Shown here: one piece after another, positions 13,441 to 53,325 of the stretch
Layout: every line of letters begins with the position of its first letter
Numbering within the stretch: position 1 is the stretch's first letter
From: Escherichia phage ES12
DNA: 64,000 bases
Direction: 5' to 3' (one strand)
Sequence record: MN508614.1
Program-made: the position numbers and the translations under genes
Notes under the pieces: generated by a model
Told to the model about the DNA's origin: nothing
The model's input: the letters and a program-made list of their open reading frames with translations, nothing else
The model's database searches: none

Positions 13441-14265
13441 TTAGATATTTGACCAGACTTTGTTTGCAGAGAAACGTTTTCCTTTTGAAACGAACTGCTG
13501 AAGTGGCATCAACACAACGTTCGCCCAGTCTTTCGGGGCGATTTCAACAAGGCTACCCATAATATTACCAGGTATATATGCCTTAATCATTTGGTCTGCA
13601 CCCCTAAATCCTTTCACTTGACTCCAATCAATTTTTAATTTCGTTTTATTAGTAATAGTAGGTGTATTTGAGTATTGCTTTAAAAGCTCTTCTAGAAACT
13701 GTTGACGAGCTTTAGGTGGAATATAGTGCAAGTTTAATCCATACATTAAATTATGCTTACCTAAACCAAGGTAAATTATTAAAGGAAATTTATCCCAGTA
13801 AGGAAGAGTTTCCTTGTGTTTAGCATCATAAGCAAAAGCATATATTCGTCCCGGCTGCGGGCGAACAACTTTATGTCCTTTTACTTGCTTAATAGTTTCA
13901 GCAAACCACTTTCTGGTTTTATTATTAATTGCTGCACCTTCATTACGAATTTTATCACGCAATGTTTGTCTGAATGAATTTATCATAAGCAGTTGTCTTT
14001 CTTGCTTATTGAGTTTATTCATTGGTTTTGATTCAAGCTTTTGAATCTTTTCAGCCGTTTTAATTCCTGAAGCATATTTTGACATTGCCGAAGTAAACGT
14101 AGAGTATTTAATTCCTCTTTCTTCAGCAAATTGCTTTCCTGACATTCCTTTTGCTTTGGCCTTTTTATATTCAAGACCTATTTGAATCCATTTCTTTTCG
14201 TTTAATGATTGCTTAACCTTTGGAACTTGGGGAGTGCTTTCATTAATTATTTGAAAAATAGCCAT
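13441..14265 (-). CDS. 2: gp2 DNA end-protector protein
   Basis: 274-aa ORF, T4 synteny and size. Confidence 0.9.
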
Positions 14266-14717
14266 TATGCCCCCTTAAAGCCAAGAGCTCGTAATCCATC
14301 TTCTGTTAGAATTCTAAATTTTATTCCACGCTTTTCAGCTAAAGATTGCGCTGCTTTCCATTTGTCAGTATTAACGGAATATGTATAAATTTCATTCATA
14401 AATCTTTTCTTCGCTGCAGTTGTTAGATGTGCTGGTTTAACTGGTGGTTGTGTTTCTTTTTTAGGTTTTATTTCAATAAAAAATTCTTGTCCAGAAGAAT
14501 CTTTCATCCAAATATCCATGAAGTATCTACGTTTTTTCCCTTCTGCATTACAAAAATAAGGAATTACTGCTGTTTCACTACCCCATGCAATAATTTCTGG
14601 ATTTTTATCTAACCATTCAAAAAAGAATTTTTCCCAATTTGATCTATACGTAATTTTTTTAGGGTCACCTCTATACTTTGATATATTTTTAGGAACCCAT
14701 TTTCCAGAATATGCCAT
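14265..14717 (-). CDS. 4: gp4 head completion protein
   Basis: 150-aa ORF, T4 synteny and size. Confidence 0.9.
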
Positions 14718-14728
14718 TGGATTCTCCT

Positions 14729-14736
14729 TATAAATA
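14729..14736 (+). promoter_or_regulatory. T4 late promoter TATAAATA upstream of gene 53
   Basis: Exact TATAAATA about 30 nt upstream of the ATG at 14765. Confidence 0.5.
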
Positions 14737-14764
14737 GATAATATATTTATAAACAGGAGGGCCC

Positions 14765-15355
14765 ATGCTCTTTACATTTTTTGATCCGATTGAATATGCG
14801 GCCAAAACGGTGAATAAAAACGCGCCGACTATTCCTATGACAGATATTTTTAGAAACTATAAAGACTATTTTAAACGCGCTCTTGCGGGATACCGCTTAC
14901 GTACTTATTATATCAAAGGTTCACCACGCCCGGAAGAATTAGCAAATACTATATATGGAAATCCACAGTTGTATTGGGTTTTATTGATGTGTAATGATAA
15001 TTATGACCCGTATTATGGATGGATTACTTCACAAGAAGCAGCTTATCAAGCATCTATACAAAAATACAAAAATGTAGGTGGAGACCAAATAGTATATCAT
15101 GTGAATGAGAACGGTGAAAAATTTTATAATTTAATATCATACGATGATAATCCATATGTTTGGTATGATAAAGGTGATAAAGCTAGAAAATATCCTCAAT
15201 ATGAAGGAGCACTTGCTGCTGTTAATACGTATGAAGATGCTGTTCTTGAAAATGAAAAACTTCGTCAAATAAAAATAATAGCAAAATCAGACATTAATTC
15301 ATTTATGAACGACCTTATACGTATAATGGAGAAATCTTATGGAAATGATAAGTAA
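14765..15355 (+). CDS. 53: gp53 baseplate wedge protein
   Basis: 196-aa ORF, T4 synteny and size. Confidence 0.9.
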   Translation: MLFTFFDPIEYAAKTVNKNAPTIPMTDIFRNYKDYFKRALAGYRLRTYYIKGSPRPEELANTIYGNPQLYWVLLMCNDNYDPYYGWITSQEAAYQASIQKYKNVGGDQIVYHVNENGEKFYNLISYDDNPYVWYDKGDKARKYPQYEGALAAVNTYEDAVLENEKLRQIKIIAKSDINSFMNDLIRIMEKSYGNDK

Positions 15356-48124: not shown

Positions 48125-48132
48125 TATAAATA
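48125..48132 (+). promoter_or_regulatory. T4 late promoter TATAAATA upstream of segE
   Basis: Exact TATAAATA 29 nt upstream of the ATG at 48161. Confidence 0.5.
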
Positions 48133-48160
48133 TAGATATATTTATTACTCGGAAAATAGT

Positions 48161-51503: not shown

Positions 51504-51899
51504 TACTCTATTACTGGAAGCCAGTTGTAGTTTTATCTGCTCAATATCATCAGGGTTATCGATGACTGAAAAGCGTATTTCTACTATCAGAGTATAATCA
51601 TCATAAACTGGTATCACATTAACTGCTAATTTATCAATACGTGGCTCATAGTTTCTTACTGCGCTTTCGATATTGCGCTCAACTGTGTCAGCAGTAAGAG
51701 GAGTCATATTTTCAAAAAGCTGGTCTGATAAATCACATCCAAATTCAGGGTCAAACGGTCTTGAACCTTTTCTTGTTGTAATAATTCCCAAAAGACTGTT
51801 TTTAATTGACCTTAATCCAAGCGATCTGGAAACATCTTTGTTCCAATCCATTTTCATTTCTGGGTCAATGTCAGAATAAAGCTTATTAATATTTGCCAT
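51501..51899 (-). CDS. 25: gp25 baseplate wedge protein
   Basis: 132 aa, T4 synteny and size. Confidence 0.95.
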   Translation of the reverse strand: MANINKLYSDIDPEMKMDWNKDVSRSLGLRSIKNSLLGIITTRKGSRPFDPEFGCDLSDQLFENMTPLTADTVERNIESAVRNYEPRIDKLAVNVIPVYDDYTLIVEIRFSVIDNPDDIEQIKLQLASSNRV

Positions 51900-52525
51900 T
51901 ATAGTAACTCAAAGAACTCTTTGAGGCCTCTTATTACATGAGCATGGGTTTTTCCACACTCTGGACACTTAATTGGAACAGCCAAATAAACGGTAGGTTT
52001 TAAAAGCATATCTTTTATAGCTACAATATCTGACTCTGTGATGATAGAATATAAATCTTCTAGTTCCTTTTCATTTAAGTCTTCAACTGGAATGCTTTCC
52101 CCGTTAGCATGAATCGTTTCTATGCATGATACTATCATGTGGGCTATATTTTTATCATCAAAAATTTTAGGGTATTGGAATTTAATTTTAATGTCACCCA
52201 GTGTATACCAGAGGTCTTCTGGTGCATCTATTTGTGTATGTAATAGATTTATATGGGTTGGTATTTCAGTTCCACAGGTGCACTTCCAAGAGTTTTCGTG
52301 ATTAACTTCACCAAGAGAATGCGCCCATAAATGAATCAACAATAGTTCTGATTCTTGGCGATTTAAATCTTTTGCATTTGTGCAGTCTTTGATTAGCTTT
52401 TTAACAATTACTTCTACAGAACCATTATTTTTGGCAGTAATAAGTTCTAGATATTCTTTAAGAGTAAATGCGCGACAGTTGATTATTTTAGAACCAACTC
52501 TCACATCAAATTTGTATTCATACAT
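51899..52525 (-). CDS. 26: gp26 baseplate hub protein
   Basis: 208 aa, T4 synteny and size. Confidence 0.93.
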
Positions 52526-52546
52526 ATTTAGCTCCTTTATTTATCA

Positions 52547-52558
52547 TATTTATAAATA
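52547..52558. promoter_or_regulatory. Palindromic pair of overlapping late promoters between divergent genes 26 and 51
   Basis: TATTTATAAATA contains TATAAATA on both strands. Confidence 0.5.
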
Positions 52559-52575
52559 GAATAAAAGGAGCATCT

Positions 52576-53325
52576 ATGGCAAACATTATTCGTTGTAAAT
52601 TACCAGATGGTGTTCATCGTTTTAAACCATTTACGGTAGAAGATTATCGAGATTTTTTGTTAGTTCGAAACGATATAGAGCATCGGTCACCACAAGAACA
52701 AAAAGAAATAATTACTGATTTAATTGATGATTATTTTGGAGACTATCCGAAGACTTGGCAACCATTTATATTTTTGCAGGTATTTGTAGGGTCAATAGGT
52801 AAAACTAAAGTACCGGTCACATTTGTATGTCCAAAATGTAAAAAAGAAAAGACAGTTCCATTTGAAATATACCAAAAAGAATTAAAGGAACCTGTTTTTG
52901 ATGTAGCTAATGTTAAAATTAAATTAAAGTTTCCTTCTGAGTTTTATGAAAATAAAGCAAAGATGATTACTGAAAATATTCATTCTGTCCAAGTAGATGA
53001 AATATGGTATGATTGGAAGGAAATTAGCGAGTCCAGTCAAATAGAACTTGTTGACGCCATCGAGATAGAAACATTAGAAAAAATTCTCGATGCAATGAAT
53101 CCTATTAATTTAACTCTACATATGTCATGCTGTAATAAGTATGTAAAAAAATACACTGATATAGTAGATGTGTTTAAGCTATTAGTTAATCCAGATGAGA
53201 TATTTACTTTTTATCAAATTAATCACACGCTTGTAAAAAGTAATTATAGCTTAAATTCAATAATGAAAATGATTCCTGCTGAGCGCGGATTCGTATTAAA
53301 ACTGATTGAGAAGGATAAACAATAA
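52576..53325 (+). CDS. 51: gp51 baseplate hub assembly protein
   Basis: 249 aa, T4 synteny and size. Confidence 0.93.

Follow-up and report, generated by a model that had tools for sequence, protein, structure and literature searches.

The 50-bp spacer between genes 26 and 51 of Escherichia phage ES12 (MN508614.1) holds a perfect 12-bp palindrome, TATTTATAAATA, which is very probably the core common to two overlapping, oppositely oriented late promoters of the T4 type. The window analysed is a 64,000-nucleotide stretch of this genome, and the features of the site are given in Table 1. Read directly, TATTTATAAATA equals its own reverse complement, as a preliminary description made from the letters alone had stated. 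The same description placed a late-promoter box on both strands with a 4-nt offset, and this too was borne out, as exact copies of TATAAATA occur on the plus and minus strands and have the central TATA (52551-52554) in common. The flanking divergent genes had been named 26 and 51, and these names are confirmed by the hub-protein assignments of both products and by the identity of the region with T4.

Table 1. Features of the 26|51 junction in the ES12 window. Positions count from the first base of the window; minus-strand boxes are written 5' to 3' where the order is reversed.
Feature	Position	Strand	Basis
Gene 26, baseplate hub protein (PF12322)	51899..52525	-	PHROGs and Pfam, T4 identity
Extended imperfect dyad centred on the palindrome; 24-nt arms, 71% complementary, no spacer; perfect 8-nt pair GCTCCTTT / AAAGGAGC	52529..52576		dyad analysis and folds
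Shine-Dalgarno (SD) AAGGAG of gene 26 (CTCCTT on the plus strand)	52532..52537	-	sequence
One-mismatch box GATAAATA, 12 nt from the gene 26 ATG and overlapping the gene 26 leader	52538..52545	-	sequence
Predicted +1 for late transcription of gene 26 (A on the minus strand; T4 116444)	52541	-	inferred from box at -13..-6 (PMC1524935)
Palindrome TATTTATAAATA, core common to the two overlapping late promoters (very probable)	52547..52558		sequence and conservation
Late-promoter box TATAAATA (-13..-6), gene 26 and downstream gene 25	52554..52547	-	exact match; annotated in LR215724.1 and OL960580.1
Late-promoter box TATAAATA (-13..-6), gene 51 and downstream 27-28-29-48-54 unit	52551..52558	+	exact match; annotated in LR215724.1 and OL960580.1
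Predicted +1 for late transcription of gene 51 (A; T4 116467)	52564	+	inferred from box at -13..-6 (PMC1524935)
SD AAGGAG of gene 51	52565..52570	+	sequence
Gene 51, baseplate hub assembly catalyst (PF12322)	52576..53325	+	PHROGs and Pfam, T4 identity

The 101 bp centred on the palindrome are 100% identical to positions 116403-116503 of T4 (AF158101), between genes 26 (minus strand) and 51 (plus strand), and what is known of this site in T4 therefore holds for the window. It is the same element as the T4 26/51 late promoters, with nothing different in sequence. Escherichia phage ES26 (MN508618) has the same region with 100% identity, about 500 Tequatrovirus records have it with 97-99% identity, and in 491 of 497 Tequatrovirus records the 44-bp core from SD to SD is conserved at 99% identity or better. 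Scarlato, Storlazzi, Gargano and Cascino reportedly mapped, in 1989 (Virology 171:475), overlapping promoters that drive divergent transcription of a T4 base plate gene cluster, and a 1991 paper by Gruidl et al. (Virology 184:359) is reported to deal with the transcription units of T4 genes 25, 26 and uvsY. We take the overlapping arrangement at 26|51 to have been known in work on T4 from about 1989 on. Yersinia phage fPS-65 (LR215724.1) carries a 'predicted late promoter' on each strand at the identical sequence, and both octamers are annotated as late promoters in Escherichia phage SA21RB (OL960580.1), with reference to Miller et al. 2003. No promoter features are given in the curated T4 record AF158101, and the ES26 record carries no annotation. 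Since it is identical to its T4 counterpart and already annotated in public records, as well as presumably described in the T4 literature, the palindromic two-way late promoter at 26|51 is a known and ordinary element with no discovery value in itself.

The number of boxes carries little information. TATAAATA has 23 copies in the window where shuffled sequence has 10.3 +/- 3.2, and none of 100 shuffles reached 23, but over the whole T4 genome there are 32 copies against 27 expected, which is barely an enrichment. The signal thus lies in where boxes are placed, not in how many there are, and the presence of a TATAAATA box is by itself weak evidence. The count of 32 perfect octamers in T4 agrees with a review of T4 late transcription, which lists 50 late sites, 32 of them perfect and not all proven active in vivo (PMC2988020). 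Within the window, 16 of the 23 exact boxes, the 26|51 pair included, end 14-38 nt before an SD-preceded ATG that opens a long ORF. The palindrome itself exceeds chance expectation: the expected number of copies of TATTTATAAATA is between 0.055 (Markov-1) and 0.077 (iid) for the 64-kb window and about 3e-5 for the 26|51 spacer alone, and the whole T4 genome has one copy against 0.15 expected.

At the junction, the plus-strand box ends 17 nt before the gene 51 ATG and the minus-strand box 21 nt before the gene 26 ATG, with an SD between box and start codon in each case. Late boxes occupy -13 to -6 relative to the start of transcription (PMC1524935), and from this box geometry alone the divergent starts are predicted to be 23 bp apart. 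The plus-strand start predicted at 52564, an A immediately before the SD, would give a leader of 12 nt, and the minus-strand start predicted at 52541 one of 16 nt. The five bases that follow the box are GAATA on the plus strand and TGATA on the minus strand, A/T at four of five positions in each. The site thus shows what is characteristic of a T4-type late promoter, namely the octamer, an A/T-rich segment from box to start, no -35 element, and a position before a late virion gene and its SD. No sigma-70-type promoter (-35/-10 pair) and no intrinsic terminator were found overlapping the palindrome. A preprint on T4 dRNA-seq reports 150 phage start sites (10.1101/2024.04.04.588121; GSE255091), and its main text does not mention genes 26 or 51; a paper on DksA and T4 RNA-seq contains nothing on either gene.

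There is no further exact box on the minus strand from the palindrome to 63334, and none on the plus strand from 48125 to the palindrome, and to judge from the sequence the two palindrome boxes are the sole consensus late promoters available to either transcription unit. The one-mismatch box GATAAATA on the minus strand is probably not a productive promoter, because a transcript begun there would have no SD.

We took the 26|51 junctions of 13 further Straboviridae genomes, picked to span the range of gp51 identity. Exact TATTTATAAATA is present in ten lineages when the Tequatrovirus of the window is counted: Tequatrovirus, Mosigvirus, Karamvirus, Jiaodavirus, Gaprivervirus, Dhakavirus, Winklervirus, Hadassahvirus, Serratia phage 4S and Bragavirus. 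When these are aligned on the 12-mer, all 12 of its positions are invariant and none of 60 flanking columns is, the 30 nt on each side being only about 50% identical. The gap from box to ATG among the relatives is 16-23 nt on the plus strand and 17-30 nt on the minus strand. A survey of IMG/VR was seeded with a gp51 profile, so that the motif was not selected for, and gave 60 loci, 51 of them with a divergent upstream ORF. The exact 12-mer is found at 44 of these 51 divergent 26|51 junctions and stands there in 28 different contexts. The remaining seven comprise three Krischvirus-like junctions with the plus-strand box only, three Biquartavirus-like junctions with a 10-bp palindrome, TATTTAAATA, that has one mismatch per box, and one contig (L179) with facing boxes. 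This survey replaced an earlier motif-first scan of IMG/VR (CTCC...palindrome...GGAG), which was biased by design and returned at least 120 loci, mostly not 26|51.

These results dispose of the reading that the palindrome is a functionless product of chance in AT-rich DNA. It has in its favour a genome of 64% A+T and a window with five more AT-only 12-mer palindromes, but the very low expectation for the spacer, the contrast between 12 invariant positions and diverged flanks, and the recurrence in 28 contexts leave it almost no probability, and we rejected it as effectively refuted by conservation.

The conservation also bears on the direction of transcription. Bases 52547-52550 are used by the minus-strand box only and bases 52555-52558 by the plus-strand box only. 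Both outer tetranucleotides are invariant, which argues for selection on both boxes and hence for use of both directions. It could be supposed that one box alone works, the other being a by-product of the near-symmetry of TATAAATA, with its gene transcribed from elsewhere. The octamer is indeed nearly self-complementary, so that overlapping opposite copies need few extra constraints, some listed late sites are unproven in vivo (PMC2988020), and the Krischvirus-like phages keep only the plus-strand box at 26|51. Against this, the four outer bases on each side serve a single box and are nevertheless unchanged in the ten lineages and at 44 of 51 junctions, neither unit has another exact box upstream, and both boxes stand at a normal distance from SD and ATG. 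We regard a single working box as very unlikely. The preliminary proposal that one 12-bp palindrome could drive both transcription units is instead supported by the exact boxes, their usual SD and ATG distances, their invariance and their prior annotation.

Several departures from this arrangement were seen among the relatives. The facing boxes of L179 (IMGVR_UViG_2974770551_000001, approximately 1440-1500; gp51 44% identity) are a crossing exact pair, TATAAATA-8 nt-TATTTATA, with no overlapping palindrome. The divergent 26|51 junction and its palindrome are absent from a Pseudotevenvirus (Cronobacter phage leB) and a Slopekvirus (Klebsiella phage Matisse), in which the order 54-51-26-25 lies on one strand and 51 and 26 overlap; this single-strand order implies an inversion with a breakpoint at the 26|51 site in one lineage. 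Seven IMG/VR contigs (L030, L048, L056, L058, L066, L089 and L130) have the same 12-mer, with mirror-image SDs, between a gp14-like neck gene (phrog_211) and a 233-aa ORF that bears no annotation, which indicates that divergent junctions other than 26|51 also make use of the palindromic two-way late promoter. In Escherichia phage CJ20 (MT533174; locus 945-980) the annotated start of gene 26 extends through the promoter palindrome. This is likely a misannotation, the true start being probably the ATG 33 nt further downstream, which has an SD before it (plus-strand CAT at 945-947).

A further reading takes the palindrome to be mainly the site of a dimeric DNA-binding protein acting on both genes, such as DsbA or an unknown regulator, with its promoter-like appearance secondary. 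Perfect dyad symmetry is typical of the sites of dimeric regulators, and DsbA is reported on A/T-rich sites overlapping two late promoters; its affinity is low, however, and its gene is non-essential (PMC2988020). The conserved block coincides exactly with the two consensus boxes taken together and stops at their outer edges, and there are cases in which the dyad is lost while the boxes persist as separate or 'crossing' pairs, as in L179 and at the 4|53 junction of T4. A protein site of this kind has even less to recommend it than a single working box.

Two overlapping late promoters thus remain the preferred explanation, and their operation can be sketched from work on T4. The gp55-RNA polymerase melts DNA from -12 to +2, flipping the non-template bases at -12, -9 and -8 into pockets of gp55, and gp33 and gp45 lie at the complex's upstream end (PMC7892883). 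T4 late transcripts are made in either polarity, the orientation of the clamp setting the polarity of activation (PMC2988020). The genes for gp55, gp33 and gp45 are all present in T4 (AF158101), at positions outside the 64-kb window. In the late phase of infection, the host RNA polymerase, with gp55 as sigma factor and gp33 as co-activator and tethered to the gp45 sliding clamp, would read TATAAATA as non-template strand, and since the box is present on both strands of the 12-mer the polymerase should be able to bind in either orientation. One orientation would give a start near 52564 and a transcript of gene 51 with the hub and tail-tube genes behind it; the opposite orientation would give a start near 52541 and a transcript of genes 26 and 25. 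The melted regions, 52552-52565 and 52540-52553, would abut at the centre of the dyad, and the polymerase footprints would overlap almost wholly, so that the two directions would be expected to fire alternately and to be mutually exclusive. A loaded clamp faces one way and serves only promoters of matching polarity; either clamp orientation would thus find a usable promoter here, and the direction of firing would be chosen by the orientation of the clamp. We infer the exact start sites, the mutual exclusion and the clamp-based choice of direction from published rules combined with the sequence.

Bidirectional promoters are also known for sigma-70, where a symmetric -10 element gives starts 7-25 bp apart, most often 18, with 23 also enriched, and binding in one orientation excludes the other (10.1101/2020.01.31.928960; PMC12825309). 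The 26|51 site resembles the sigma-70 promoters of Warman et al. in having a symmetric core read on opposite strands and close divergent starts, which are predicted here. It differs in that its core is formed by the 8-bp gp55 box (-13 to -6) rather than by a TATAAT hexamer, that there is no -35 element, and that activation is by an oriented sliding clamp rather than by a site-bound activator. By analogy, the site can be regarded as the gp55 equivalent of these sigma-70 promoters, in a different class of sigma factor.

Of the five divergent junctions in T4, three (26|51, 4|53 and inh|segE) carry paired late boxes on opposite strands. At the T4-type 4|53 junction, between gene 4 (head closure, 14265-14717, minus strand) and gene 53 (baseplate wedge, 14765-15355, plus strand), exact boxes at 14729-14736 (plus) and 14751..14744 (minus) face each other across a 7-nt spacer, and the 5' ends predicted from these crossing boxes overlap by about 5 nt. 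At inh|segE an exact plus-strand box at 48125-48132 precedes segE and a one-mismatch minus-strand box, AATAAATA, at 48146..48139 precedes inh, with a spacer of 6 nt. These junctions are like 26|51 in having paired opposite boxes in a spacer of at most 50 bp between two divergent genes. They are 'crossing' junctions, with boxes that face each other 6-7 nt apart, whereas the boxes at 26|51 are back-to-back and have four bases in common.

The symmetry of the 26|51 spacer extends beyond the boxes into an imperfect dyad (Table 1). It is conceivable, although we consider it doubtful, that this dyad also acts in RNA, where a hairpin predicted for read-through transcripts would bury the downstream SD and AUG and leave only late-started transcripts to be translated. 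Read-through RNAs of 66 nt, when modelled, gave folding energies of -13.0 kcal/mol (z -3.9) and -14.3 kcal/mol (z -2.7), and both SD and AUG are paired in these folds; the late transcripts expected from the two boxes come out unstructured (-1.2 and -2.6 kcal/mol), and the 24-nt arms contain the 8-nt perfect core. The fold is more pronounced in Bragavirus PM2 (-24.5 kcal/mol, z -7.3), and there is precedent in T4 genes e and I-TevI (PMC3014915), whose leaders have what is predicted at 26|51, namely the SD and AUG pairing and a late start inside the hairpin that gives a late RNA without the 5' arm. Unlike those leaders, the 26|51 hairpin is a prediction that owes part of its pairing to trivial complementarity, since closely spaced divergent genes with strong SDs are bound to be complementary (CTCC/GGAG, CAT/ATG). 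Its significance is also inconsistent, as just four of the ten palindrome-bearing lineages have z values of -2.4 or below on both strands, the rest being near zero. Given this inconsistency the hairpin was kept as a minor rival reading and dropped as a conserved feature, since across lineages it does not consistently beat shuffled sequence. If the hairpin reading were true, both hub genes would be translated solely from late-initiated RNA.

The products of the two genes are themselves related. PF12322 is matched over its full length by both gp26 and gp51, which align by BLASTP with 20% identity (E = 1e-5), collinearly from residues 17/18. Genes 26 and 51 are arranged head-to-head with the palindrome on the axis, its centre 27 and 23 nt from the respective ATGs, and this layout suggests the geometry of an inverted duplication. 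In Proteus phage PM2 (Bragavirus; L012, 950-1000) the 45-bp 26|51 spacer together with both start codons forms a near-perfect 51-bp palindrome (CATAGTGTCTCC...GGAGACACTATG), which would fit an origin of the symmetry by inverted duplication or arm conversion. A combined interpretation, which we put forward as speculative and rather improbable, would make the 48 bp at 52529-52576 a dyad module on the axis of the paralogues, comprising a clamp-directed two-way promoter, a hairpin hiding SD and AUG on either strand, and a symmetry that arose from, or is kept by, inverted duplication or arm-to-arm conversion.

What the present analysis adds to a known element is a quantified conservation and direction-specific evidence of selection on both boxes, together with pointers to the dyad, the hairpin and the paralogue geometry. 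An 8-bp promoter sequence that is nearly self-complementary would allow two divergent assembly operons to be driven from 12 bp of DNA, and the 26|51 element may serve as a natural test case for how an activator that is an oriented sliding clamp chooses the direction of transcription.
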